A stretch of DNA of 64,000 nt from an uncultured Candidatus Micrarchaeota archaeon (GTDB taxonomy: Archaea; Micrarchaeota; Micrarchaeia; Anstonellales; Bilamarchaeaceae). The stretch lies in NCBI GenBank assembly GCA_903828955.1, contig CAIKOA010000008.1, positions 36,813-100,812 on the forward strand, read 5' to 3'. This document shows, in pieces, positions 12,873 to 59,502 of the stretch. The first letter of the stretch is position 1. Each line of letters begins with the position of its first letter. The notes beneath the pieces are model-generated. The model did no database searches. It saw only the letters and a list, made by a program, of their open reading frames with translations, and was not told the origin of the DNA. Both the position numbers and the translations under genes were made by a program.

Positions 12873-15800
12873 TCATTCCTTTTCCGAGGAATTTATGAAG
12901 GCTTTCCTTATCTGCCTTCCGCGGTGGTCCATCTGCTCCTTTATCTCCGCGGCGAGCTTATCCCTCTTGGCCACCCGCTCCGGAGTCCAGACCTTCTTGT
13001 TCTGGCCGGGCTTCCCGACCATCTTGATATAGTCTTCGGAAAGTAGCAGCACTTCGAATTCTCCCCCCACCGATACGAACCCGGAATTGTGGCCCTCCCT
13101 CTTGAAGAGCTTTGGCATGTCCGCCACAATCTTGCCCGCGTCCGCAGCAGAAAGAAGAATATCTATCCTGAGCTCAGGCTGGTCTTCCGGAATCAGCCCC
13201 GGGTTCTTCCTAATCTTTTCGCAGAGGTCGCTCAGCACCGCAAACCTCTCCTCGCTCTTCATCTTCCATGAGGCATCCAGGATCTTGCGTGGTGTATCAT
13301 TCTTATTCAATCCATTGACCTGGTAGGATTGCTCAACGAACCAATCCGAAACCCCGTTTGTGCCGTATGCAGGCTCTTCATTGTTTCCATCCGAAGAGAA
13401 CCCGCTCACCGTTGGCGGAAGAACCGGTGCATTGCCCTCAGCGGCGGTCGGGGAACCCCTCAGCGAAGCAGCCTTCGCCTCCAATGCGCCCACTTCTTCT
13501 GCAAGCCTGAGTTTCCCTTCCCTTGCCTCCCTCACTTTCTTGTCATAGCCTGATGGGGGGGTCTTCGTGTTGAACTCCCCCTTCGGGCCCACATAATCGC
13601 TCATTCGCGTAAGCGCATCAAGGGCGGCCTTCTTCCTTCCCAAATCCTGCCCTTCCATAGATGCGAATTCAACCGAAGAACCCATCGCATCAATTATTAT
13701 CTGCCCAAGAACCGCTTCCGACATCTTGTGCTGGATTTCCTTGCTTCCATACACGCGGTCCGCGGTTTCCACAAGTATCGCAAACCTTTCCTCAACATTC
13801 TCAAGCGCCTTTGCCTTCCTATAAATGTCCCTCGGGTTTCCGTCCCTTGGAATTGAATTCTTCGCAAAGGCATTCTCAGCCGCCTTGCTCATATCAAACG
13901 GCGCAACTGAAACCGGCGCATTAGCTGCCGCAGCCTGCGGAGCCTGAGCGCCTGCAACCGCTGCCACGGCCGCACCGCTTTCCTGCTGCGGAGCAGGGGC
14001 CTCCTGGACCTCCTGCGCTTCCATTGCTGATGCAGGAACCGTTCCCATCCATTCAATGACGCTCTTGTAAAGAACTTCCTGCCCCTTCGTGGGCTTTGCT
14101 TTTGAAAATCCCCCGTCCTTATTCAATACTCCAGACGCCCGCGTTGCAATCTTCACCGCAGCCGCAGTTGCCTGTGGGTTTCCCATTGCAACGTTCCTTC
14201 CCGTGCCCATGGCGGTTATCAAAATATTCCTCACCATCGAGTCATCCATCTTAAGCTGGATATTGTTGTCAAGCATGTAATTGGCGGTGTATGCAAGGAC
14301 CGCAAACTGGTCCTGCGCATTCTCAATCTTGAGCGCAGCATTGTAGAGCGCCCTCAGTTGCGGCCCGGCCGGAACATCCGGATTCACTTCCGAAAGCCCG
14401 CTGTTTGCAAGCGCAGTGTTTACCGCCGCATTCAAATCATATGCGGGCACTTTGGGAGCCGTTTTAACCACTTTGGCCTGCTCGGCCGGGTGAGCCCTGC
14501 CGGATCCTTCATCCACAGCACTCCTCACAGTCGTCCTCTCATGGGAAACGAGCGCCGCAACCGGCTTATTCATCTGCCCATGCATTCCTGCCTCCTCATT
14601 CCTCTGATGCATATTGGAGTGTGGCCCAACCGTCGCAAGAGTGACGATTCCTGCAATGCCCACCACTCCCGCAGCCACAAGCCAGACCTCGTGCCTCTTT
14701 CTTGAATAGAACTCTGAAACCCGTTTTGCACCGGATATCGTGCCCTCCCGCTTTGCGCGGATCCATCTTCCTGCCTCATTGTACCATGCATTATGCTCCG
14801 CCATCCCCATTCCAAACCTGATGCCCTCATTCTTGCGCTCTTCAAGCGCGCGGGCATATGCCTGGCCTTCGCTCATCGAAGGTATTTCAATTACGCGTGC
14901 CCGCGGCTTTGAAGGAAGCTCCCCCTTTCCTGCAAATCCATAAACGAATATGCCATTTACCGCCTTTCCAATAGGAGTTTTCCAGAATTTGTCTTCCCTG
15001 GCCTCAGGAATCGCTTCCCTTTCAATATCGATTGGCGTTGTGGTTTCCGGTTTCTCTTCTTTGCGTTCGGGCTCCACCAAAATAGGCGCAGGCGGAGCCA
15101 CGGAAGGCGCTGCGAGCGCATCGCTAATCAGCGTTCCCACTGAAAATTCCGGCCTTGCCGGAAGCGGAGTAACCGTCCTCTTCTCAAAGGCAGGCCCCAC
15201 CATTATGGGCGGCTCCGCCTCTTCTCCAAGTGCCGCATCCATCGCGGCAGCAATCTCGGCTTCTTCAACATCCGCAAGCGGCCCTGTCTCCGCTTCTGCA
15301 ATTGCCGCAGGATGTTCCGAAGCCTTTGCGCGTTCCGCAACATCACTTCGGCTGAATACCGCGGTTATCCCATCCTCGCCTTCCGGTTCAGCTCCCGCAA
15401 TCGCTTCAGGATGTTCCGAGGCCCTTGCGATCACTCTCATCTCCCTCTGGCTGACCACCGCGGTCGCCTCCCTCATGCTTCCTGGCTCGGAAGCGATAAT
15501 TGGCGAAGCTGCAGGAGTAGAACCAACCGGTCCCGGAGCCTCTGAAAGCACCGTGGGCCTGTGCTCCGCCTCGGGCTCTCTCAGCACAAGCAGTTCCCTG
15601 GAAAGGCGCGCCTTTTCTTCTTCAAGCGCATTTGCCCTGTTTTCCATGCGGGCCATCCTGGTATCCTTCTCCTTCATTGCCCGCTCGTAAGCATCAACTT
15701 TCGCAACAAGCTCGCTTATCCTTCCAGCTAAACCCGCGTTATCCCTCTCGAACTTGTTGCGGGCTTCCCTGAGCCCTATAATTTCCGCATTTCTATCCCC

Positions 15801-17012
15801 GATCGCTTCATTCAGCCTGCCGTTCTCTGCCCTGAATGCATCAACGGTCTCCCGCTCTTTTCTGAGTGCAGCCTGGAGATCCCCGATTTCCGCAGTAGAA
15901 GTAATTTCCCTTGCACGAAGCCCGTGCACTTCCTCAATTACTGCCGGGGGAATTCCTCTTTTTCCCGCTTCCTCAATTAGCTTTCTGTTGGCTGCCTTGA
16001 GTTCATCCATCTCATTGGAGAGTTCCCCAACCCTAAAAAGCACCGTATCTCTTTCAGAGGCAATCACCGAGGAATCATAAACGCCCCTCATCGCTTCCGC
16101 GGTGGTGTGCAGATACCAGGAATCAAACATCCTCTTGTACATTTCCCCTTTCGAATAAACGCTGCCCGCGTATTCCTCTGCGTTCGCAATTAATTGGGTG
16201 AATAGGATTATCCCTTCGTTTGGCTCCACCCAAACCCCCCTGGAAGTAAGCCTTTCGCAGGCATCCATCACTTCCCCATAAGGAGTGAGCGGAGTCATCT
16301 TCATGTCCCCATAGGCCTGCGCCATCATGGAGAACCCCTTCTCCTTTGCATGGGTCCAGCTAAGGTAATTGTTTAGCCTCCCATCATCTGCAATCTCTTT
16401 GGAAAATGCCCTGATCATTTGATACTCGGAAGCATAATTTTCATTCTCAAGGCGTTTTCCCCTGAGCGCCTCGACCGCCTGCGCCACTTTGCTGCGCATA
16501 AGCGCCGGCTCGGCAGTCCACCCCTTCCAGTCTTCCCCGGTTATTTCAGAAACCCGGTAAAGCGTGCTCCCATACCGGAGGAAGCGCTCTTCATTTTCAG
16601 CCGCCTTTTTCATTGCAGCCGCATGCGCGTCTTCCCCGGTCGTTCCCAAGCCAAGAGCAGGCTTTGGAGAAAGCGTATTTCCCTTCGGCGCATCATTCCT
16701 TATTCCAGTAAGCGTATCCTCTTTTCGTTTAGTCTCTTCTGTAGCAACTCCTTTTGGCATCGGCCTTGCTATTGATTGGGTAATCCTTGCCCCCGCAGGA
16801 GCTGTAGGCGTGCCGGAAACAATCGGCTCACTGCCTTCAGGGCGCCCCTGCCTTGGAAGAGGCAGCCTCTCAGGAGGAGGAGGCGGCCTCGAAGTGCGCG
16901 CTATTCCTCCCCTGAAAGTCGCCGTAATCGGCCTCTTTGGCTTTGAAGGCATTACTGGAACTGGAGGAGGGCCCTTTCTGCCCCCATCATTAGGGTTACC
17001 GTAATCTGGCAT
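12873..17012 (-). CDS. Giant (1379 aa) lineage-specific single-pass membrane protein with coiled coils and four internal helical repeats
   Basis: Uninterrupted 4.1-kb ORF. One TM helix (VWLVAAGVVGIAGIVTLATVG) about residue 745. Coiled-coil stretch (residues 330-480). Repeated module beginning EERFA-L / DQFAVL occurs four times. Start set to ATG 17012 (MPDYGNP) because a tttataaa TATA box lies 25-34 nt upstream. Confidence 0.75.
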   Translation of the reverse strand: MPDYGNPNDGGRKGPPPVPVMPSKPKRPITATFRGGIARTSRPPPPPERLPLPRQGRPEGSEPIVSGTPTAPAGARITQSIARPMPKGVATEETKRKEDTLTGIRNDAPKGNTLSPKPALGLGTTGEDAHAAAMKKAAENEERFLRYGSTLYRVSEITGEDWKGWTAEPALMRSKVAQAVEALRGKRLENENYASEYQMIRAFSKEIADDGRLNNYLSWTHAKEKGFSMMAQAYGDMKMTPLTPYGEVMDACERLTSRGVWVEPNEGIILFTQLIANAEEYAGSVYSKGEMYKRMFDSWYLHTTAEAMRGVYDSSVIASERDTVLFRVGELSNEMDELKAANRKLIEEAGKRGIPPAVIEEVHGLRAREITSTAEIGDLQAALRKERETVDAFRAENGRLNEAIGDRNAEIIGLREARNKFERDNAGLAGRISELVAKVDAYERAMKEKDTRMARMENRANALEEEKARLSRELLVLREPEAEHRPTVLSEAPGPVGSTPAASPIIASEPGSMREATAVVSQREMRVIARASEHPEAIAGAEPEGEDGITAVFSRSDVAERAKASEHPAAIAEAETGPLADVEEAEIAAAMDAALGEEAEPPIMVGPAFEKRTVTPLPARPEFSVGTLISDALAAPSVAPPAPILVEPERKEEKPETTTPIDIEREAIPEAREDKFWKTPIGKAVNGIFVYGFAGKGELPSKPRARVIEIPSMSEGQAYARALEERKNEGIRFGMGMAEHNAWYNEAGRWIRAKREGTISGAKRVSEFYSRKRHEVWLVAAGVVGIAGIVTLATVGPHSNMHQRNEEAGMHGQMNKPVAALVSHERTTVRSAVDEGSGRAHPAEQAKVVKTAPKVPAYDLNAAVNTALANSGLSEVNPDVPAGPQLRALYNAALKIENAQDQFAVLAYTANYMLDNNIQLKMDDSMVRNILITAMGTGRNVAMGNPQATAAAVKIATRASGVLNKDGGFSKAKPTKGQEVLYKSVIEWMGTVPASAMEAQEVQEAPAPQQESGAAVAAVAGAQAPQAAAANAPVSVAPFDMSKAAENAFAKNSIPRDGNPRDIYRKAKALENVEERFAILVETADRVYGSKEIQHKMSEAVLGQIIIDAMGSSVEFASMEGQDLGRKKAALDALTRMSDYVGPKGEFNTKTPPSGYDKKVREAREGKLRLAEEVGALEAKAASLRGSPTAAEGNAPVLPPTVSGFSSDGNNEEPAYGTNGVSDWFVEQSYQVNGLNKNDTPRKILDASWKMKSEERFAVLSDLCEKIRKNPGLIPEDQPELRIDILLSAADAGKIVADMPKLFKREGHNSGFVSVGGEFEVLLLSEDYIKMVGKPGQNKKVWTPERVAKRDKLAAEIKEQMDHRGRQIRKAFINSSEKE

Positions 17013-17036
17013 AACATATATTCTTCTATAGAAATG

Positions 17037-17046
17037 TTTATAAACA
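17037..17046 (-). promoter_or_regulatory. TATA box for the giant-protein gene
   Basis: Reverse complement reads TTGTTTATAAACATTTC. The in-frame upstream ATG at 17069 would make this box part of the coding sequence. Confidence 0.45.
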
Positions 17047-17116
17047 ATTACTTTTTTCCATCTTTTCACACACTTTCCCTATTCCTATATATTATTTCCC
17101 CGCTTTAAGGGATAAT

Positions 17117-17779
17117 ATGGCAATCCAATGCCGTGTCTGCGGAAGGGAAGGCTTCGACATCTGCCCGGAATGCTCGTTCAAGGAGATGAACCAGCAGTGC
17201 TGGAGGTGCAGGATGTACATCCCCAAATCCGAGATGCAGCAGTTCCAGGGCCAGTGGATATGCCCAAACTGCAGGATGGACCTCCAGGAAGGGGAAAGGC
17301 ACGGAAAGGGGCGCGGCGCCTCCGGAGAAGGAGGGCCCGGGGATGAGCCGGGCAGCCAGGAAATGCGCGACAAATTGGGGGAATGCGAACGCTGCAAGAG
17401 GCCCACGGACGTCTTCTACATAGTCAATGGAAGGAAGCTCTGCAAGTTCTGCTTTGAACAGGGAAAGGAATACATGGCGCGCGGCCCCGGCACATCGCCC
17501 GCACGCATCCAGATAATGCGCAGGAAATACGAAAAAAAGGGCCTTTTCCGCAAAATACTCGAATTCTTCTTCGGAAAACCCGAGGAGCCCGAATACGAAA
17601 TAGTCGAAGCCGAAGTTATAATTCCAAAGAAGAATGAAGAGCCGAAAACCCAGAAAGAGTCTGCCCAAAAGCCCCCGGAGGGGGCAAGGGCCGAGATAGT
17701 TCCCAAGAAAAGCGAGGGGCAGAAGCCCCAGAAAGAGGAAAAGCCAAAGCACGACTGGCAGGAGCACAAAAGAGAATAA
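17117..17779 (+). CDS. Triple zinc-ribbon protein with basic/acidic C-terminal tail
   Basis: Three CxxC...CxxC modules (CRVCG..CPEC; CWRC..CPNC; CERC..CKFC). ctatatatta TATA 25 nt upstream. The antisense ORF 17105..17767 is low-complexity and was rejected. Confidence 0.6.
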   Translation: MAIQCRVCGREGFDICPECSFKEMNQQCWRCRMYIPKSEMQQFQGQWICPNCRMDLQEGERHGKGRGASGEGGPGDEPGSQEMRDKLGECERCKRPTDVFYIVNGRKLCKFCFEQGKEYMARGPGTSPARIQIMRRKYEKKGLFRKILEFFFGKPEEPEYEIVEAEVIIPKKNEEPKTQKESAQKPPEGARAEIVPKKSEGQKPQKEEKPKHDWQEHKRE

Positions 17780-17899: not shown

Positions 17900-19465
17900 A
17901 TGGCAGAGAAAATGCTTACGCCTGAAGAGAAGGCGGCAGCAATGCCGGTTATACAGAGCGCGATGCAGGCATACCAGCAGCACTACGGGATAAAGCTTAC
18001 CGAGCAGGAAACTTCCCGCGTCATGGATAGGGCCCTTAACAATCTGAATTCCCAAGCAACGCCAAGCGAAGTGCGCGGGGCGGTAAGGAACCTGATGCTC
18101 GAGGTCCTCACCAAAAATGACCCTGCGCGCGCAACTGAGCTACAGATGCAGGCGCAGGGCGTTCCTGGATCAGAGAGAAGCAGGATACCCGCTATTGCTG
18201 AGAATGAAGGAGCCAATGCTGCAAATGCCGGCTTACCAAAAGAGGCCGGAGCCCAGACTCCGGCACAAAGCCCGATGTTTTTAGGCCCAAAGCATGGCCA
18301 GGAAACCCAGCAGGAGCAATTCGCTTCTGAGCAGAAGAAAATAATCGGACAGATTTTTGCAATAAGCCCAAAGCACTTTCAGGAAGCCATCCTTAGCAAA
18401 ATCGAGCCTCTCAAACCAAACGCAACCTCAGAAGAAAGGATGGAAAAGATAAAGGAACTGTTCAACCTTATAAAAAAAGGAGGAGTGCTAGGCATCGAAT
18501 ACCAGTTCTCCGAAGGCAGACCTCCGAAAACCCCTAACGAGGTCTTAACTCCTGAGAAAGACGGAAAAATGCGGGCGGATTGCGATGAGCTTTCCCTTTT
18601 CTTTATTGCTGCGGCACGAAAACTGAATATCGACCTTTCGGATGTAAGCATCGCAGTGGTTAAGTTCGAAGCGCAAAATCCCGTTTTGCTAAACAAAAAA
18701 GAGCCATTGCATGCTGCCATTCTGACAATCGGAAACGAGAAAGCTCTTCTGGACCCGGTTTTTGGAATAATGGAGAAAATGAACTCTTTTGGTTCAGAAG
18801 ACCTTCTCAAGGCATATAACGGAAAGTTTCTTCCGGGCAACTTTATGATAGTTGGGGTTTTGGATGTAAAGATTGCCAGCGATTTAGCAGATATGGCAAG
18901 CATTCATTTTCATGAGAAAGCCAAATACTATGCAAGCCAATTTCAAACCGAGAAAGCAATATCTACTTTAGAAATAGCAACCGCAATAAGCCCGAATAGC
19001 ATTAATCTCAAGGAGGAACTGCTCGGGCTTTATTTGAATATCGCGGACGAAGCGGTCAGCAGCGGGAAAATTTCCATGGCAGAAGCCAATTCCAAAAAGG
19101 CACTTTTGTTGGGCTCAAAGATCAGCTCTCCTGGCAGCGCGGTTATTGATAATCTTTACCATGCGCACGATGTTTTAGGGTCAGCATACATGAAACAGAA
19201 GAAATATTCTGCAGCCATTTCAGAGTTCGATGAAATGATTAGAATAAAACCTGCGGAGCCGTTGGCATACTATAATAAGTCATATATACTCTATGGTTTG
19301 GCAGGAGATGCATACCGCGCAGGCGCCGTAGAGGACGCTAAAAAATATCTTAGTGACGCAGAAAGCACGATGTTTGCCGCGTCACAAAGAGTTGCTGAAG
19401 AAAAATATGACCAAAATATGATGGAATTGTTCCGTCTTATCCAAGAAAAAAGGTCAAAACTTTAG
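17900..19465 (+). CDS. Multi-domain protein: conserved N-domain (shared with 59503..59805) + transglutaminase-like Cys-protease core + TPR-like helical C-terminus
   Basis: N-terminal 80 aa are about 60% identical to ORF 59503..59805 (MAEKMLTPEE[KR]AA..PV[IV]QSAMQ.Y.QHYG.KLTE.ETSRV). Middle: CDELSLFFIAAARKLNI...HAAILTIG...LDPVFG, a Cys-His-Asp transglutaminase-like core. C-terminus: TPR-like helices. Confidence 0.7.
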   Translation: MAEKMLTPEEKAAAMPVIQSAMQAYQQHYGIKLTEQETSRVMDRALNNLNSQATPSEVRGAVRNLMLEVLTKNDPARATELQMQAQGVPGSERSRIPAIAENEGANAANAGLPKEAGAQTPAQSPMFLGPKHGQETQQEQFASEQKKIIGQIFAISPKHFQEAILSKIEPLKPNATSEERMEKIKELFNLIKKGGVLGIEYQFSEGRPPKTPNEVLTPEKDGKMRADCDELSLFFIAAARKLNIDLSDVSIAVVKFEAQNPVLLNKKEPLHAAILTIGNEKALLDPVFGIMEKMNSFGSEDLLKAYNGKFLPGNFMIVGVLDVKIASDLADMASIHFHEKAKYYASQFQTEKAISTLEIATAISPNSINLKEELLGLYLNIADEAVSSGKISMAEANSKKALLLGSKISSPGSAVIDNLYHAHDVLGSAYMKQKKYSAAISEFDEMIRIKPAEPLAYYNKSYILYGLAGDAYRAGAVEDAKKYLSDAESTMFAASQRVAEEKYDQNMMELFRLIQEKRSKL

Positions 19466-19782
19466 TGGATGCGCGGCTCCAGTCTGTGTTTTTCCCGTTT
19501 TTCTACTGGTTTAGGTCTTAGTTCTTCAAAACCCCAATTCGGGGGCAACTTTGCTTTTTGACCCACAGATGGTTTTTCCAGCGTGGCTCCCGCATCTTCC
19601 ACCGGCTGGGCTTTCTTAGGCACAATCGCTAATTTCTCCCTGTCATCCGCCATCCGTACAGCCTTTTCCGTATCTGTTATCGGCGCCCTATTATTAAAAG
19701 TTGCTTTAGGCCGTTCCCTTCCGCAGGCTGGGGAAAGAGCAATAACAGTTGCAAGCGCTGCGGCGCCAAGCAGCCTTTTCAT
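19462..19782 (-). CDS. Small secreted/lipoprotein-like hypothetical protein
   Basis: N-terminal signal-like MKRLLGAAALATVIALSPAC (possible lipobox), then a Lys/Pro-rich region. Confidence 0.4.
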   Translation of the reverse strand: MKRLLGAAALATVIALSPACGRERPKATFNNRAPITDTEKAVRMADDREKLAIVPKKAQPVEDAGATLEKPSVGQKAKLPPNWGFEELRPKPVEKREKHRLEPRIH

Positions 19783-19876: not shown

Positions 19877-20254
19877 CTAAACTCTCCTCGTCCTGCTTAT
19901 TTTACCCTTCCCGTCGTATTTTATTATGTCTTCCTTCCCGTTCTTGTCGATTAAGCTGATGCTGACCGTCTTGCTGTCCACACTCAGAGAAAGGTACATC
20001 CCGTCCGAAAGCCTTGTGCTTATCGTATTCCCGTCGTCGTCCCTTCCTATATGGAAATCGGTCTCCCCGACCTTTGCAAGCGCCCTCATAAACGAAGGGC
20101 CCATTTCGCTCCCGAAAGCCCTCTCCGCGTTCTTGAACGCCTGTATGCAGATATCCCTTGCCCCGTTCACTTCTGAGGGAATTATCGAAAGCGGGTTGAT
20201 TGCAGTCCGCATCTCTTCAGTCTGAGCCTTGTTTTCATCCGGGCCAAATGCCAT
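19877..20254 (-). CDS. Hypothetical protein (possible Roadblock/LC7-like fold)
   Basis: 125 aa. C-terminal beta-rich pattern HIGRDDDGNTISTRLSDGMYLSLSVDSKTVSISLID is loosely Roadblock-like. Weak. Confidence 0.35.
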   Translation of the reverse strand: MAFGPDENKAQTEEMRTAINPLSIIPSEVNGARDICIQAFKNAERAFGSEMGPSFMRALAKVGETDFHIGRDDDGNTISTRLSDGMYLSLSVDSKTVSISLIDKNGKEDIIKYDGKGKISRTRRV

Positions 20255-20657: not shown

Positions 20658-21251
20658 CTAAGGGGCGCTTCCTTCAAGGGCTCCCTTCCTTTTCACCTTT
20701 CTTTCCACCAAATCAATTATCGTGGAAGGCTTCCTGTGAATTGTAGGCCCCCCATCCAAAACCAGATCCACTTCCTCCAGGATTCCCTTCTCAACCTCTT
20801 CGATGCAGGTAGGCGGCTCCTTCCCCTTCCTGTTCGCGCTCGTCGTAATTATCGGCATCCCCAAATCAGTGCTCAATTTCCGCATGAATGAATGCTCCGG
20901 AACCCGGATTCCAATTTTCCCGTCTTTTGCTACGGGCAATTTAATTTTCTCCCTGGTAACAAGCGTAACCGGCCCCGGAAGCAAATTCAGGACCGCAAGC
21001 CTTTCCGCCTCCCCTTCAACATCCGCGTACTCGCGAACCATATCCAGATTTCCCAAAATTACAGAGAAGGGCTCCCCCTTTCCCTTCTTTTTTATTTTCC
21101 TGATTCTCTCCACAACCTTCGGGTTCCGCGCATCCCCTCCAATCCCATAAAGCGTATCCGTCGGGTAAACCAAAACCCCTCCACTAAGCAGCACTTCCTT
21201 TGCCTGCTTGAATGCGCGCGCATGCTCGTAAAGTGAAATTCTCTCGCTCAT
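20658..21251 (-). CDS. tsaC: L-threonylcarbamoyladenylate synthase (TsaC/YrdC/Sua5 family)
   Basis: YrdC-domain pattern VLVYPTDTLYGIGGDARNP...SVILGNLDMV...ITTSANRKG...VLDGG. Confidence 0.85.
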   Translation of the reverse strand: MSERISLYEHARAFKQAKEVLLSGGVLVYPTDTLYGIGGDARNPKVVERIRKIKKKGKGEPFSVILGNLDMVREYADVEGEAERLAVLNLLPGPVTLVTREKIKLPVAKDGKIGIRVPEHSFMRKLSTDLGMPIITTSANRKGKEPPTCIEEVEKGILEEVDLVLDGGPTIHRKPSTIIDLVERKVKRKGALEGSAP

Positions 21252-22849
21252 ATCTCCTCTACCTTGATGGGCCCGTATTTCCTCTCAATCTTTCGGAATT
21301 TCTTTGACCCCTTCCCGAAAATATAAGAAATATCATTCGGCTTTGCAAGGACCACAAACTGGTTTTCCCTCTTCTCCACTTTGAATTCATGGTTCAAAAC
21401 GTGCGAAAGCATTTCCTCGAGCCTTCCGCCCCCTCCTCCTTCACCTCGATCTCTTGCGCCCCCGCCGCCTCTTCTTCCCCGTCCTGACCCCCGCGTGGCA
21501 GTTTCCATCGAGAGCACAACGGTTTCTTCTCCGAATTTATACAGCTCATATTCCAGTTCGCCCGATTCAAATTCCCGCACCTCAATTACCGGCCTGGCAA
21601 GGTCCTTTTCCCTCATCCCGGTGGGCACCTTCACGGTTTGCTCAAGATCATAAACTTTCCCCACGCGCCCCTTATCGATCAAAATAACAGTATCCACTAT
21701 CTGCGGAATCATTCCGAGTTCCACCTTCCCAATCAGCCTCTGGATCGCATCAATTGCCTTGTGCCCGTGCACCACTCCCACAAGCCCGATTCCGGATAGG
21801 CGCATATCCGCAAAAATCTGGAAATCCTTAATCTTGCGCACCTCATCATAGAAGGTATAGTCCGGCCGCACAAGCAGGAGAATTTCCTTCGTATTGTCAA
21901 AATCCCCTTCAAGGGCGGTATACTGCGTAATCTCCTCGCGCACCCGCATATCACGCGGGCTTTCCATCGTCTTCACTACTTTTTTCTTGTCGTAATAGTA
22001 CTCGGCAAGCGCGGCCGCAAAAGTAGTCTTTCCGCTTCCCGGAGGCCCGCAAATGAGGATTCCCTCCGCCTTATTGTCTATCCTGTCCTTCAATTTCTCC
22101 CGCACATTATAATCCGCAAATTTCAGTTTCTTTATCGGCCGAACTATGGTAATCTCAAATCCATCTGAAAATGGGGGCTTTGCAATTACAATCCGGTAAA
22201 CCCCCAGCTGTATTACAGAAGCTCCCTCCTTGTCTATTTCAAAGTAATAGCTCCTGTTCCGGTTCACCGCCTCAACGATCTCTTCCCCAATTGCGCGGAG
22301 GGCGTCAAGCGAAATCGGCGCCCCAACCTCCTCCACGATAACTTCCCCGGGCCGCCCCCTTTTCCGCACCACCTTGCAATCCTCCTTGAAGTGCACGCTC
22401 ATTACGTCCGGCTCGAAATACTTCGCAAACTTAAGCTCCTTCGCCTCCTCGTGCGAATGCAAATAAACAGTAAGAATCCCTTCTGCAAGGGCAGCCTCGT
22501 GCTGCACCTTGTCCCCGGTAATGAGCGTAGCCCCAAGCCCGCGCGCAAGCTCCCGGACTAAATGGTCAATCGCCCCTTCCTTTTTCGCAGCCCGCACCTG
22601 GTCCGGCCGCGGCCTCTCCCCTTCAATAATCACCTCTATTTCCGATTCCTTCTCGAGTGCGCGCAGTTTTCCAATCACAGAAAACCCTGCAAAACCCGTT
22701 TCCTTATTCATATTCGACTGGTATTCCAGCTCCGCAATCGTCGCCCTGTGTATAAAGAATTTCCCGCTAAGCCCCTTCTCCTTAATGAGCTCAAGTATCC
22801 TCCCATCCACAATTACGCTGGTGTCGCAAACATAATCCATCCCAATCAC
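21248..22849 (-). CDS. PIN-domain/PhoH-like ATPase with C-terminal KH domain (COG1855-type) carrying an RGG/Gly-Arg insert
   Basis: N-terminal PIN (CDTSVIVDGRI), Walker A GPPGSGKTT, C-terminal KH-like region. Insert RGSGRGRRGGGGARDRGEGGGGGR at 21437..21508. Confidence 0.8.
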   Translation of the reverse strand: MIGMDYVCDTSVIVDGRILELIKEKGLSGKFFIHRATIAELEYQSNMNKETGFAGFSVIGKLRALEKESEIEVIIEGERPRPDQVRAAKKEGAIDHLVRELARGLGATLITGDKVQHEAALAEGILTVYLHSHEEAKELKFAKYFEPDVMSVHFKEDCKVVRKRGRPGEVIVEEVGAPISLDALRAIGEEIVEAVNRNRSYYFEIDKEGASVIQLGVYRIVIAKPPFSDGFEITIVRPIKKLKFADYNVREKLKDRIDNKAEGILICGPPGSGKTTFAAALAEYYYDKKKVVKTMESPRDMRVREEITQYTALEGDFDNTKEILLLVRPDYTFYDEVRKIKDFQIFADMRLSGIGLVGVVHGHKAIDAIQRLIGKVELGMIPQIVDTVILIDKGRVGKVYDLEQTVKVPTGMREKDLARPVIEVREFESGELEYELYKFGEETVVLSMETATRGSGRGRRGGGGARDRGEGGGGGRLEEMLSHVLNHEFKVEKRENQFVVLAKPNDISYIFGKGSKKFRKIERKYGPIKVEEI

Positions 22850-22963
22850 TTGCGCTTATATGAAGAGCCCCATAATAAATAGTTTTCCAGATTATAGTGT
22901 ATGTAAGCGGTTCTTCATGAGCAAAACAGAATCTTTATAAACCGTTCTATGCACACTATTCTC

Positions 22964-23081
22964 TCGCCAACGGCCATAGGGAGCTGGAAACACCCGATCC
23001 CATCTCGAACTCGGAAGTTAAGCGGCTCTACGGCTTTATCTGTACTGCCCTAAGGGTGGGAAAATGGGCTGCTGTTGGCAC
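22964..23081 (+). rRNA. rrf: 5S rRNA, copy 1
   Basis: GCCAACGGCCATAGGGAGC...CCCGAACTCGGAAGTTAAGC...GTACTGCCCTAAGGGTGGGAA...GCTGTTGGC. Helix I closes the 5' and 3' ends. TTTATAA TATA box 25 nt upstream (22934..22940). Confidence 0.85.
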
Positions 23082-23087
23082 TTATAT

Positions 23088-24605
23088 TCATCTAGGCCTT
23101 TTTATCAGACGCTCTTTAAGCCCGTCTTGTTTTCCCGCCATCTCCTCTGCCAACTCCCCCTCGGGGCCCTTGTAATAGCCGATTACCTTGTTGTCCTTGC
23201 CGTACAATCTCACTCCGTCTATTATTGTTCCCCTTTCCTTTGCGTACATTTGAAGCAGGGGCCATATTTTTTCTCCATTGTATTCATACATATGATCATA
23301 GTCGATAAGGTACATCTTGTTTGTTTTCGTGTCCCTTGCAATTGAAATAGAATGCCCCTGATCCTTACGAAAAAGCTCCACAGTGTACGCCTCTGCTCCA
23401 TTCATCTGCAGGAACTTGGTTGCCAAGGAACTTATATTGCCGCAAATGCCCGCATCAGCCGTTTTCCTGCTCAAAATCCATTCCCGGATGCCCCTGTACG
23501 CGTTATCAACCCCTATCTCCTCCAACGTCCTTGCGTCTTCAGAATATGGTTTGTTTACGGCATCCGCCAGGGGGCCACTGTAATTCTTTTCCCCTGCCCA
23601 TGCCAGTGCTTGCGCAGCCGCGACTAAATCAAAAAAAGAGCTTCCCTTGTATTTTTTTGCAAACTCTCCGAATGTTTCGGAGCTTTTCATCCTCTCCGTA
23701 AAAAGGAAAAGCGCCGGAGTCCAGTGGGCCGTTAGCTCAGCAGTATCGTTCCTCGTGCCGCCCTTCTCCCGCCCCACCGCAAACCCCCTCTCTATTTTTA
23801 CTTTGCCCGTTTCCTTTTCTCCAAGGCGGAACTTTACCCCCACGCCGATTTCATCCGCAAACATTTCGTTTTGCGCCTTCGCCCCCCATACGTATATCTC
23901 AGGCCCCACGTACTTGCCTTCTAAGGAAACCGCAGCCTCGCCCCCGGTTTTAAACGGCGTATGGAGCATCTCCACACGGATGCTGGCGCGGTCAAGGTGT
24001 ATCACCACCCCAGCCCTCGCCTCGTCATGGTGGGGGATTGAGGCCTTCGCCCCTGCATACTCATACGGGCGGTCCGGTCCAAAGAATACCTGCTCCTTCG
24101 CATAAAAAATCAGGGGTTCGAAAATGAAAGCAGCCCCTCCCGAAGCGGTAAAGTGGGGGGATTCATAGGAAAATACGCCCCCTCCCTGCGCCCACACTCC
24201 GGCTTCCACCCCCAGCCTTAGCCCGTACCCCCCGTCGCTCATTGTTTCCCAAACACCCCCTGCGCTTATGTTCTTGAACATGGAGGTGCGCACCTCGCTG
24301 GTTCCCGGGATTATTGGCATGCTTACGCTTCCGTACAGGTCAAAGGCGCCCACTTTCCCCCCTGCTTCCAGCGACGGAGTTACAAAGAAAAGCGGCCTGT
24401 AATAGTTCAGCTCCAGCGCGCCCGCCCCGGCCCCTATTTGCACCGGTCCGAAAACACCCTTCACCTCTCCCTTGGTAACCTCTCCGGCCTGGCTGCGCCC
24501 GACATTCGACAATTCGAATTTTAGATAATCCAAAAACGATTTTTCCCCTGTTTTTACCGGAACAGTTTCCTTTAGTTCAGCGGATTCTTCCGATTTTTGG
24601 TCCAT
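23088..24605 (-). CDS. Hypothetical protein: Gly-rich beta-strand N-terminal half + C-terminal Cys/His/Asp transglutaminase-like segment
   Basis: 505-aa ORF lying exactly between the two 5S copies. C-terminus GICGNISSLATKFLQMNGAEAYTVELFRKDQGHSISIARDTKTNKMYLIDYD (C..H..D spacing of the papain/TGase fold). No signal peptide. Confidence 0.55.
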   Translation of the reverse strand: MDQKSEESAELKETVPVKTGEKSFLDYLKFELSNVGRSQAGEVTKGEVKGVFGPVQIGAGAGALELNYYRPLFFVTPSLEAGGKVGAFDLYGSVSMPIIPGTSEVRTSMFKNISAGGVWETMSDGGYGLRLGVEAGVWAQGGGVFSYESPHFTASGGAAFIFEPLIFYAKEQVFFGPDRPYEYAGAKASIPHHDEARAGVVIHLDRASIRVEMLHTPFKTGGEAAVSLEGKYVGPEIYVWGAKAQNEMFADEIGVGVKFRLGEKETGKVKIERGFAVGREKGGTRNDTAELTAHWTPALFLFTERMKSSETFGEFAKKYKGSSFFDLVAAAQALAWAGEKNYSGPLADAVNKPYSEDARTLEEIGVDNAYRGIREWILSRKTADAGICGNISSLATKFLQMNGAEAYTVELFRKDQGHSISIARDTKTNKMYLIDYDHMYEYNGEKIWPLLQMYAKERGTIIDGVRLYGKDNKVIGYYKGPEGELAEEMAGKQDGLKERLIKRPR

Positions 24606-24762
24606 GCAACTTCAATTCTAGATTACGCACCCAAATTTAAAATGGGTATTGGCGCGTGCATGGAAATGGATTCGAGCCCTTATCCGGAGGAGCGGGGGAA
24701 TTCCTGCGGTTCAGCATGAGCGAAACAGAATCTTTATTACTCGTTCTATGCGCACTATTCTC

Positions 24763-24880
24763 TCGCCAACGGCCATAGGGAGCTGGAAACACCCGATCCC
24801 ATCTCGAACTCGGAAGTTAAGCGGCTCTACGGCTTTATCTGTACTGCCCTAAGGGTGGGAAAATGGGCTGCTGTTGGCAC
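24763..24880 (+). rRNA. rrf: 5S rRNA, copy 2
   Basis: Identical to copy 1 over the mature region. The duplicated block extends from about 24711 to 24890 (about 190 bp, about 95% identity with 22911..23090), including the upstream promoter-like segment. Confidence 0.85.
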
Positions 24881-24961
24881 TTATATTTACTTACTTATTC
24901 TGATTCTTGCGTTTAGATAGAATTTTATACCTCACCGCATTATTCGCCATCAGGTGAAAAA

Positions 24962-56041: not shown

Positions 56042-56496
56042 TGATGGGGGGTTGCTTGGGATGAAACACTTTAGGGGGCGCTCCCCCTGAAGGGTTCTTC
56101 ACGGTTTCCGTCTGGGTTCCCTACACCACAATCGTCTCAAAAGGAACCATCTGAAGGAGCCCGCAAATCCATTCCGGATCGGCCTTTTTATGCTTTTCAC
56201 CAACTGTTTTTCAGAATACGAGAGAGGGAAAAACGCCCCCGGTGGAAAAGCCCAAAAATGCGGGTTTTTTCAGGAGCGGTGCAACAAATTTTCAGAAGTA
56301 TTCTCCGTCTGAGGGGCAAAACCTTTTTAAACACGTATATTCATATCTATCCTTTACCTTTTACGCTTCGAGCGCCCTCTTCGACGAATGGCGCGATGAA
56401 AAACGAATTTATTCATATAGGGTAGGCTATCTCTTCACGTTGGGGAGACAGCCGGCGTTTATAACGCCAAAAGAGTGTGAAGTAACTAGCTATGAA

Positions 56497-59396
56497 GTTT
56501 GGATATGTTGCATCCATGTAGTGGATGACTAGGCTAGTGCCAGCAAACTCACGTGGTAAGCTGCGATAAGCTTGGGTTAGGTGCACGCAACCATTGACCC
56601 CAAGATCTGAGTGAGTGCCCCTCGGGAAACTGAGGCGCACAGCTACCCCGGGAATTGAAACATCTAATTACCGGGTGGAAAAGAAACCAATTGGGATTCG
56701 GTTAGTAAGTGGACTGAAAGCCGAACAGGCCGTGCTGAATTCCCTGCAGCAATGCAGGGCAAATGTGGCGGGGAATATCCATTCTCTGAGCAGAAGTCCC
56801 CTGGAATGGGGTGCCATAGCGAGTGAAAGCCTCGTATGCGAAGGAGTGTGGAGTGAACCAAAACGAGTACCGTCCACCGGATAGCGGGCGGGAATATGGG
56901 GGTATCAACCTCCAAGCCTAAATATTGGGCATTAGACCGATAGCGAATGAGTAACGCGAGTGAACGTTGAAAAGGACCCCGGAAGGGGTGTTAAAAGAAC
57001 CTGAAACTACATGGAGACAGGAAGGTAAGGCATGAAAGGGTTATATGTTTGCCGAAGTGAATCCCAGAAATGGTTGGATCGAGGCAAAAGCACCAGTGTC
57101 TTATCATTCTTCTCGAAGCAAGAGCCAGGGAGTTTATCTGTGTGGCGAGACGAAAGTCGAAGCGAAAGCGAGCGTCCGCAGGTAACCAGGGACATCCTCT
57201 GAAAAGGGGACCAGTCACACAGATCAGACCCGAAGCCGGCGCGATCTACTCCTGACCAGGGTGAAGCCAGCCTGTCCGTTGGTGGAGGCCCGCAACCAGT
57301 GATGGTATATTCCTCTTGGGTGAGTCAGGTGTAGGGGTGATAGTCCAGTCGAGCTTGGCAATAGCGGGTTCCCCTCGAAATGTATCTCAGTACAGCGTCT
57401 TCCGAGGATGATAACGGGGTAGAGCACTGAATGGGAAGAGCGGCTCCGAAAGGTGTCACTTCCCTATCAAACTCCGAATTCGTTATCTCCGTAGACGAAG
57501 GCAGTCGGGTTCACGGGGTAAGCTTGTGAACCCTTACGGGAACGACCGTACGTGAGGTTAAGGGCCCTAAATTCTGGTTAAGTGTGAATACAAAGGAGCT
57601 TCTATCCTTAGACAGCTGGAAGGTAGGCTTAGAAGCAGCCATCCTTTAAACAACGCGTAATAGCGGACCAGTCGAGGATGCAGGTTCCGAAAATTGACGG
57701 GGCTAAACCAGATCCCGATACCCCACCCGAGCCAAAAGCTCGTGGAGTAGGGGGGCGAACGGGGCGGGTAGAAGCAAGGCGGTAACGTCTTGTGGACCGT
57801 TCTGTTATGAATATCCTGGTGTCAGTAGTAGCATATCCAAGTGAGAATCTTGGACGTCTGATAGGGCACGGTTTCCTCAGCCATGTTTGTCAGCTGAGGG
57901 TTAGGCGATCCTAAGTGGTGAGGTAACACCGGAGCCACGAAAGGGAAGCAGGTTAATATTCCTGCCCAACAGAGGTAGATGCGGCAACGCAAGTGCGGTT
58001 TTTGACCGCTTGGGATAAGCTGAGCCCGGGAGACCGGGTTTAACAGCGATACATCCATCGAGTCTTATCATGAGGAGAAGTGGATGAAACGCTGGAATAG
58101 GAGCAATCTTTGGCCGATTCCTGAGTGCCATGAAAAGAAAACCGTTCCGATCCTCTATTTCCGTACCTAGAACCAATACAGGTGCCCCTGGCTGAAAAGG
58201 CCCAGACGTGTTAAGACAACCCAGGCAAGGGAACTCGGCAAAATAGTCCCGTAACTTAGGAAGAAGGGATGCCTACCATCTTGTAGATGGTAGGTGGCAC
58301 TGACAAGGGGAGTGCGACTGTTTATCAAAAACACAGATCACCGCAAGGTCGTAAGGCTTAGTATGGTGGTCGACGCCTGCCCACTGCCAGTACCTGAACG
58401 CCCCATTCAAGGGGAAGAAGGGCTGGTAAAGAGCGGGGGTAACTCTGACCCTCTTAAGGTAGCGTAATACCTCGCCGCTTAATTGGCGGCTTGCATGAAC
58501 GGCGTAACGCCACTCCTACTGTCCCTGCCTGGGACTTAGTGAACTCATTGCCCGGTGAAGATACCGGGGACTTCCAGAGGGAAACGAAGACCCCGTGGAG
58601 CTTTACTATAGCCTGATGTTGCTGTATCGGTGTGGCTACCGAGCGTAGATGGGAGCCGTCGAGACCGTATCTCCGGATACGGTGGAGGCAAAATTGAAAC
58701 ACCATCTAGTTATGCTGATACTGCTTACCCGCAAGGGGACAGCATCAGGTGGATAGTTTGGCTGGGGCGGTACGCCCTCGATAGAAAAACAAGGGCGCCC
58801 AATGTTCTGCTCAGGCGGGTCAGAAATCCGCTGTAGAGGGTTAAAGACAAATGCAGGGCTGACTGTGTTCCTAAAAGCGTGGAACGCAGAGACGAAAGTC
58901 GGGCTTAACGAACCTTAGTATTCTATTGATGGGAATCTAAGCTGTCAGACAAGCTACCCCGGGGGTAACAGGCTCGTCGCGGGCGAGAGTACACATCGAC
59001 CTCGCGGCTTGGTACATCGCTGTCGGCTTGGGACATCCTGGTGGTGCAGGAGCCACCAAGGGTTGGGTTGTACATCCATTAAAGTCCCACATGAGCTGGG
59101 TTCAGTACGTCGCGAGACAGTACGGTAGTATCTTCTGGAAGTGTAGGTTCTTGAGGGGAAGGAACTTTGAGTACGAGAGGAACGGAGTCCCGGGGCCTCT
59201 GGTGTATCGGTTGTGTCAATGCATTGCCGAGCAGCTACGCCCTCCGTCGATAAGACCTGAAAGCATCTAAGGTCGAAGCGACACCCAAAACGAGGAACCA
59301 AAGACCGCCTATAGTAGATAGGTTTGATAGGAGCGGGGTGTAAGTCCTTAGCTAACGCGAGGGATTCAGCCTGCGCTTACTAAAGGTATAATCCCA
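56497..59396 (+). rRNA. rrl: 23S (large subunit) rRNA, about 2.9 kb, not linked to 16S or 5S
   Basis: 5' region GTGGATG...AAGCTGCGATAAGC...GGGAATTGAAACATCTAATTACC (domain I). Sarcin-ricin and peptidyl-transferase-like segments further in. Ends bracketed by a complementary processing stem (56483..56496 / 59397..59412). All ORFs called inside were rejected. Confidence 0.85.
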
Positions 59397-59502
59397 AATT
59401 TCATAGCTAGTTATCTTTTTCATTCTATTTTATTTTACTTCGTCTTAGCGTGAGCGCTGCCCAGTTCCTATCCCAAAATTAAGTTTAAGTTAAATCCGCG
59501 TT

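Follow-up and report, generated by a model that had tools for sequence, protein, structure and literature searches.

A micrarchaeal family of large coiled-coil membrane proteins with repeated helical modules

What kind of protein is encoded by the minus-strand gene at 12873..17012 of a 64,000-nucleotide (nt) stretch of contig CAIKOA010000008.1, from the uncultured Candidatus Micrarchaeota assembly GCA_903828955.1, and what might it do for the cell? Analysis of this stretch, taken at its full length and called the window below, revealed that the open reading frame (ORF) is a genuine membrane-protein gene, whose 1379-amino-acid (aa) product lies outside every known family and is restricted to one small Micrarchaeota clade. 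Members of its family combine two novel types of all-alpha domain with a coiled coil and one transmembrane (TM) helix. For its function we tentatively favor a structural role in the cell envelope. The molecular basis of envelope building and partner attachment in the DPANN archaea is largely unknown and most candidate proteins are unannotated; the family described here is among the largest conserved proteins of its clade, with sizeable domains predicted on both sides of the membrane.

Gene, family and protein architecture

On the minus strand a single ORF extends without interruption over 12873..17069, confirming the 4.1-kb frame described by an earlier annotation of this locus (the sequence-only reading). 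Several lines of evidence point to the ATG at 17012 as the true start, the codon that this reading had preferred on account of a TATA box inside the longer frame: the resulting 1379-aa product (P0001) is annotated identically on four public contigs, an N-terminus of the form MP(D/G/E/K)… is common to several homologues (alignment A1), and the TATA box TTTATAAA (17037-17044) is found ~28 nt 5′ of the ATG, within the longer GTG-initiated frame. This spacing implies an mRNA that is leaderless or nearly so. The long ORFs of the opposite strand, already taken for Ser/Ala-rich read-throughs, are indeed Ser/Ala/Gly-rich shadows of the purine-rich coding strand (e.g. 14950-15690, with 23% Ser and 17% Ala).

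An exhaustive phmmer search of 1.84 billion representative proteins, with the single sequence as query, revealed eight relatives with E-values from 4.6e-208 to 7.9e-6. Word-indexed searches with the full protein or A1 returned the query alone, low-complexity words having probably swamped them, those with A4, representing the N-terminal domain, returned nothing, and a scan of GTDB representative genomes with A2 gave no confirmed locus. With the adjacent proC gene as anchor, syntenic Micrarchaeota loci were retrieved, and a scan of metagenomes contributed two further loci only. Together, the relatives and syntenic loci form a family of about ten members, the complete ones 967-1379 aa long with two or three C-terminal helical modules; an apparent one-module form was rejected, as this 862-aa protein (P0004) ends at a contig end. 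No paralogue was found within the 64-kb window. All named genomes carrying a homologue at the same locus are metagenome-assembled genomes of Candidatus Micrarchaeota/Micrarchaeia, small-genome members of the DPANN. The lineage specificity originally proposed for the protein is supported by the phmmer search.

The common architecture and the shared locus, convergent with proC, define a new Micrarchaeota-specific family. All members have an N-terminal domain ending in KRMFDSW, a coiled coil, the motifs RPTV(L/V)S and T-x-P-I-x-I-E (alignment A1; A6, A7), a juxtamembrane block with IFxYGFAGKG and AWYNxAGRWI, one TM helix, a K/R-P-A-V-A-Q-V motif ~20-25 residues past it, and the modules. Ratios of nonsynonymous to synonymous substitution rates (dN/dS; Nei-Gojobori, six orthologue pairs) were 0.13-0.55 in every measurable region and 0.15-0.23 in the C-terminal half, these values being approximate because dS was saturated in several pairs. 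The C-terminal half also showed the highest aa identity within each pair (51-79%), except for L010/L011, where the N-terminal domain was more similar; within subfamilies, where its identity is 58-79%, no region evolves more slowly. All regions are thus under purifying selection; ratios this far below 1 indicate that the gene is certainly functional, and the low values of the C-terminal half, that this putative external half is not diversifying.

About 775 residues precede the TM helix, beginning with the Pro-rich N-terminus noted previously (Pro makes up 28% of aa 1-50). In an AlphaFold2 (AF2) model of aa 131-827, this is followed by an all-alpha globular domain, whose invariant residues include F203, W219, C252 and F296-D297-W299 (A1) and for which no PDB sequence or fold match was found. 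The coiled coil, put at about 150 residues by the sequence-only reading, proved to span roughly 160, with unbroken AF2 helices at aa 314-351 and 356-477, heptad signals at aa 311-354, 375-402 and 426-479 in a heptad scan, and weak matches to coiled-coil families at aa 319-488. Beyond a linker that the model shows as disordered (about aa 478-673) lies the most invariant block of the family, the juxtamembrane region (Y691, G692, G695, P703, W743, G748, R749), modeled as a short helix that covers the FWKT…IFVYG motif and a helix at aa 716-771, with predicted local distance difference test (pLDDT) values up to ~90, that is continuous with the TM helix.

Exactly one TM helix is present, as had been claimed, at aa 776-797 and not near residue 745: this is the only strongly hydrophobic span and the sole Kyte-Doolittle peak above 1.6. 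A hydrophobic segment of 21-28 residues, rich in Gly, Ala and Val and variable in sequence, is kept in 11 of 11 members. In each of these members the 20 residues before it contain 4-7 K/R and 0-2 D/E and the 20 residues after it 1-4 K/R and 0-4 D/E, and hydropathy and composition revealed no hydrophobic N-terminal signal sequence. By the positive-inside rule, the K/R-richer N-terminal flank and the missing signal sequence therefore lead us to infer an N-in/C-out topology, with the coiled coil predicted in the cytoplasm and the modules outside.

The ~580 residues that follow the TM helix comprise three homologous alpha-helical bundles of ~140 aa each on disordered linkers. In a second AF2 model (aa 800-1379, from a 9-sequence family alignment; mean pLDDT 74) the bundles occupy aa 860-998, 1041-1183 and 1216-1378, with block pLDDT mostly 83-95, and the linkers aa 800-855, 1000-1035 and 1184-1211. 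Homology of the modules (M1-M3) is supported by local alignment against 300 shuffles and by profile-profile comparison of family sub-alignments with hhalign: M1 and M2 matched with z=17 (hhalign 98.3%, E 1.9e-14), M2 and M3 with z=6.2 (95.3%, E 2.4e-8), and M1 and M3 weakly (z=4.0, E 1.5e-3). The internal helical repeats of the sequence-only reading thus exist; they number three rather than four, all C-terminal to the TM helix. The fourth copy, marked by 'EERFLRY', was counted because the N-terminal domain begins NEERFLRYG, and it was rejected because this domain resembles none of the modules (z<=2.3, hhalign probability <=1.1%). Nor are the modules ~200 aa long: the folded units span ~140-160 aa, and the motif-to-motif period of 174-180 aa exceeds them because of the disordered linkers. 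No tandem repeat was detected at the DNA level, indicating that the triplication is old.

The earlier statement that the protein has no recognizable domains stands, within the limits of fold searches made with whole models. In Pfam, NCBIfam, PADLOC and PHROGs, the sole matches were sub-threshold ones to coiled coils, at aa 319-488; a Pfam scan of all eight family members added nothing, and no credible match to PDB sequences came from phmmer or from profile searches. With Foldseek, the C-terminal model matched designed helical repeats in PDB at a best E-value of 1.1e-3 with TM-scores <=0.21, the N-terminal model reached a best E-value of 1.3, and BFVD yielded no significant match. Accordingly, no module showed a significant match to a known family or fold.

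Control region and possible function

The region upstream of the gene is unusually conserved. Over nine loci (the window, L001, L004, L005, L008-L011 and L013), whose proteins are 23-44% identical to the window protein, the 100 nt 5′ of the start showed 76% per-column identity, and 33 of 104 columns were invariant, including TGTGT, TGGAA..A..TA, TTTA.AA and TTTC. Other intergenic promoters of the same loci showed 60-61% identity and 7-11 invariant columns per ~100; values like those of the promoter were reached only by flanks that are coding themselves. The composite motif has a single occurrence in the window. Its invariant half-sites, GGAA and TTTC, lie on either side of the TATA box in the manner of an operator and may represent a candidate operator for some regulator, whereas a structured 5′ RNA was rejected (consensus energy −0.84 kcal/mol).

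The gene order at this locus is PIN-ATPase, Sua5, a small ORF in some cases, a 125-aa ORF, a divergent zinc-ribbon gene and the large gene, followed by convergent proC, thioredoxin and a 91-aa ORF; the position convergent with proC recurs in L001-L011 and L013. The large gene lies in the company of housekeeping genes, namely Sua5, proC, thioredoxin and proteasome alpha. The sequence-only reading had placed a triple zinc-ribbon protein in divergent orientation next to the large gene, and six CxxC motifs, which make up three zinc ribbons, bear this out. The gene is syntenic in most relatives (L001-L004, L008-L011), with three ribbons in L001 and two in L004 and L008-L011; one subclade keeps the large gene without it (absent in L005, L013 and L014). 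Functional linkage deduced from synteny was rejected on this ground and because the neighborhood is collinear.

We propose, with a probability of about 0.4, that the protein spans the cell envelope as a constitutive tether or scaffold, dimerized by its coiled coil, and has a conserved structural role. Transcription would start from a near-leaderless promoter, its TATA box bracketed by the conserved operator-like element. A parallel dimer would form through the coiled coil and through small-xxx-small motifs of the TM helix; its cytoplasmic part would serve as a docking platform and its bundle modules would extend outward, under or within the surface layer of the cell itself. Such a role would be conserved and structural rather than one of variable host recognition. 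We favor it because the outside half evolves slowly, the gene occupies a stable housekeeping neighborhood, the promoter is strongly conserved, and the traits reported for adhesins and S-layer proteins of DPANN archaea (a signal peptide, folds of the Ig-like or beta-helix type, dense glycosylation; bioRxiv 10.1101/2023.10.27.564410) are absent. The architecture is conserved family-wide, and about ten diverged genomes keep the gene intact in a single syntenic position.

Several points weigh against this proposal. Neither homology nor experiment assigns a function to any of its parts, the AF2 models were built from only 8-9 sequences, and synteny carries no information here, the whole neighborhood being collinear across these genomes. 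The N-in/C-out topology is derived solely from hydropathy and the positive-inside rule, and the C-terminal half carries much charge and few sequons, an uncommon composition for extracellular domains of archaea.

A role in cell-cell or cell-host contact, raised by the sequence-only reading, is plausible, but the evidence leans slightly against it and we regard it as doubtful. The three external modules would bind the surface of a partner archaeon while the cytoplasmic coiled coil anchors or organizes the attachment site. The organism is a member of the Micrarchaeota, a DPANN lineage, and to our knowledge all cultivated DPANN members are ectosymbionts. The protein is clade-specific, its long flexible linkers would give the modules reach well past the membrane, and module number varies by subclade (2 or 3). 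However, purifying selection on the C-terminal half is strong (dN/dS 0.15-0.23) and its rate of evolution does not exceed that of the cytoplasmic part, the opposite of what would be expected of a diversifying host-recognition surface. The zinc-ribbon neighbor is dispensable in one subclade, and no adhesin-type domain was detected by Pfam or by Foldseek against PDB. The predicted outside part is all-alpha with few sequons, in a protein lacking a signal peptide. In contrast, surface proteins described in Nanobdella, a cultivated archaeon of the DPANN, are beta-rich, with Ig-like or beta-helix folds, and several are heavily glycosylated, some with a C-terminal TM helix (bioRxiv 10.1101/2023.10.27.564410).

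A bolder form of this idea, which we consider unlikely, is that the protein is the founding, hitherto unrecognized component of a Micrarchaeota-specific envelope-spanning apparatus, in which a dimeric cytoplasmic coiled-coil platform with docking motifs is mechanically coupled through one TM helix to a series of novel helical bundles that engage a partner cell or its surface layer, under a dedicated clade-wide operator. If true, this would add a new type of junction protein between symbiont and host, and two new folds with it.

In a further alternative, the protein acts as a transmembrane signaling or sequestration device, in the way of an anti-sigma factor of bacteria or of a regulator tethered to the membrane, its external modules sensing a cue and its cytoplasmic part holding or releasing a soluble partner such as the zinc-ribbon protein. 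The latter is a possible partner: its gene diverges from the large gene over a common, highly conserved 104-bp control region with operator-like half-sites on either side of the TATA box, and the cytoplasmic disordered linker carries conserved short linear motifs typical of docking sites. This reading is weakened by the dispensability of the zinc-ribbon gene, since the P0006/L013 subclade lacks it and retains both the large gene and its upstream element. Furthermore, in Pfam and NCBIfam scans neither the window protein nor any of the eight family members showed an MCPsignal, HAMP or HisKA/HATPase domain, and the zinc-ribbon protein matched no family, including those of transcription factors. 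We therefore judge a signaling function to be quite improbable.

The composition of the C-terminal half (0-4 N-x-S/T sequons per ~420-590 aa and at most one Cys in the 11 members, Lys/Glu-rich with a charged tail) leaves a small doubt about its outside location and is typical of cytoplasmic proteins. It is compatible with a membrane-associated cytoplasmic scaffold, the hydrophobic segment being no true span or the orientation being another one. This arrangement is very unlikely, given that the hydrophobic stretch is retained in all members and is too short for a helical hairpin, that a second hydrophobic span is absent save for a marginal one in P0006, and that the charge asymmetry is consistent family-wide. 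Finally, a chance ORF or decaying pseudogene, to which the lack of annotation or Pfam match and the low-complexity stretches could point, is refuted by the identical product called on four contigs, orthologues of 967-1379 aa without internal stops (every complete copy is intact), dN/dS well below 1, confident AF2 domains, and a conserved start and promoter.

In sum, a structural tether or scaffold is the reading we tentatively retain. Although the protein is one of many orphans in such genomes, its confidently predicted domains without PDB neighbors and its unusually conserved control region make it a concrete and tractable target for localization, interaction and structural work.

Feature coordinates and neighboring genes

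Table 1. Features of the large gene, its product and the divergent zinc-ribbon gene (coordinates in the window; CDS, coding sequence).
Feature	Protein position	Window position	Strand	Basis
Conserved promoter/operator-like region: TGTGT 17068-17072, TGGAA 17056-17060, TTTATAAA 17037-17044, TTTC 17031-17034		17013..17075	-	Column conservation
CDS of the 1379-aa protein (P0001), stop codon included		12873..17012	-	ORF list and translation; identical public product; intact homologues under purifying selection
Basic Pro-rich disordered N-terminus, conserved T-x-S-I motif (T78, I81 invariant)	aa 1-130	16623..17012	-	Composition, alignment A1
Conserved all-alpha N-terminal globular domain (NEERFLRYG ... 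KRMFDSW)	aa 131-300	16113..16622	-	AF2 block pLDDT mostly 83-94
Predicted coiled-coil stalk	aa 311-480	15573..16082	-	AF2 helices, heptad scan, coiled-coil-only weak matches
Acidic Ala-rich disordered linker, conserved short motifs RPTVLS, TPIDIE	aa 481-673	14994..15572	-	pLDDT mostly <50; A1, A7
Juxtamembrane region: FWKTxxGKAxxxIFxYGFAGKG motif and 56-residue helix (AWYNxAGRWI) entering the TM helix	aa 674-772	14697..14993	-	A1, AF2
Single TM helix VWLVAAGVVGIAGIVTLATVG	aa 773-797	14622..14696	-	Kyte-Doolittle, family conservation
Disordered post-TM linker, conserved K/R-P-A/V-V-A-Q-V motif (aa 816-822)	aa 798-859	14436..14621	-	pLDDT <50; P817 invariant
Helical module 1 (M1)	aa 860-999	14016..14435	-	AF2 pLDDT ~86-94, seven helices; repeat statistics
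Helical module 2 (M2), after Ala/Pro/Gln-rich linker aa 1000-1040	aa 1041-1183	13464..13892	-	AF2, hhalign
Helical module 3 (M3) and charged C-terminal helix, after linker with conserved GSPT motif	aa 1216-1379	12876..13367	-	AF2, A6
Divergent 220-aa protein: three CxxC...CxxC zinc ribbons, Lys/Glu-rich tail		17117..17779	+	Translation

The public call of the zinc-ribbon gene begins at 17213 (188 aa), inside ribbon 2, and the ATG at 17117 restores three full CxxC pairs. Between this gene and the small ORFs, a 521-aa TPR-repeat protein is encoded at 17900-19465(+) in this genome only; no syntenic locus of a relative has a TPR gene, indicating a lineage-specific insertion. A 106-aa ORF with a lipoprotein-like signal start (…ALSPAC) at 19462-19782(-) is poorly conserved. 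The 125-aa soluble protein encoded at 19877-20254(-) has no family match and adjoins the locus in all relatives with 40-81% identity. Further along, the protein with PIN domain and P-loop ATPase (21248-22849(-)) shows 76-88% identity across the clade, and the 4-nt overlap of its gene with the start of Sua5/TsaC suggests a fixed operon.

A 182-nt direct repeat (22907-23088 and 24706-24887, 96% identical) contains two 5S rRNA genes. Its copies flank an orphan 505-aa ORF at 23088-24605(-), of which L001 and L013 have homologues upstream of their PIN-ATPase gene. A complete archaeal large-subunit (LSU) rRNA gene is present at 56494-59402 and no small-subunit (SSU) rRNA gene within the 64-kb window, so that the rRNA genes appear unlinked. 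On the other side of the locus, beyond the 91-aa ORF, a strain of the closest relative (L002, 14229-18612) has two genes for DNA methyltransferases and one for an integrase of the phage type, and L001 a P-type ATPase gene at the same position, a strain-variable island beside the conserved block.

Comparison with known systems

Proteins of the SMC, Rad50 and JetC type share with the orphan protein a long coiled-coil segment capable of antiparallel pairing and the weak profile matches at aa 319-488. The orphan protein, in contrast, has no ATPase head or hinge, and the scores are 12-20 bits: SMC, Rad50 and archaea-specific SMC-related profiles gave 12.6-19.5 bits against NCBIfam cut-offs of 300-1087, and the PADLOC matches to JetC and LmuB were equally weak. 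A SNARE- or syntaxin-like protein was also rejected; syntaxin-1 was the top Foldseek match for the cytoplasmic model but with an E-value of 1.3 and a TM-score of 0.08, and a SNARE-like tail anchor is incompatible with the ~580 aa that follow the TM helix and the absence of a SNARE Pfam match.

The best Foldseek matches, to alpha-helical repeat proteins (8ga7, 8cwy, 5k7v, VPS35, Ton1535), share an all-alpha, repetitive packing with the modules. These matches are not significant (see above for E-value and TM-scores; root-mean-square deviation up to 45 Å) and cross flexible linkers, indicating generic helix content rather than a common fold.

Like S-layer stalks or anchors of the SlaB and tetrabrachion type, the orphan protein combines a membrane anchor with a long coiled coil, which could bridge the membrane to the surface layer. 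In SlaB-type proteins a signal peptide is found at the N-terminus and the TM helix at the C-terminus, the coiled coil is extracellular, and there are beta-sandwich domains and many sites of glycosylation (bioRxiv 10.1101/2023.10.27.564410), whereas the orphan protein lacks a signal peptide, has its coiled coil on the positive-inside side (11 of 11 members) and its TM helix mid-protein, and is predicted by AF2 to be all-alpha in its outside part, with 0-4 sequons.

MapZ (LocZ) of streptococci is a bitopic marker of the division site. Similar to the arrangement predicted here, it is an N-in/C-out single-pass protein with a cytoplasmic N-terminal part and extracellular subdomains on a flexible linker, and its conserved role is structural, not enzymatic. 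The orphan protein differs in being three times larger, in having a long coiled coil in its cytoplasmic part and three modules homologous to one another, in showing no Pfam family at E<=1 outside the coiled coil and no significant PDB fold match for either half, and in belonging to an archaeon, which lacks peptidoglycan. The resemblance to MapZ is thus analogous and limited to overall topology. Nevertheless, as a kind of protein, a putative bitopic protein of the envelope that combines a coiled coil with repeated modules on the outside, the micrarchaeal family would have its analogues in MapZ and the S-layer stalks.

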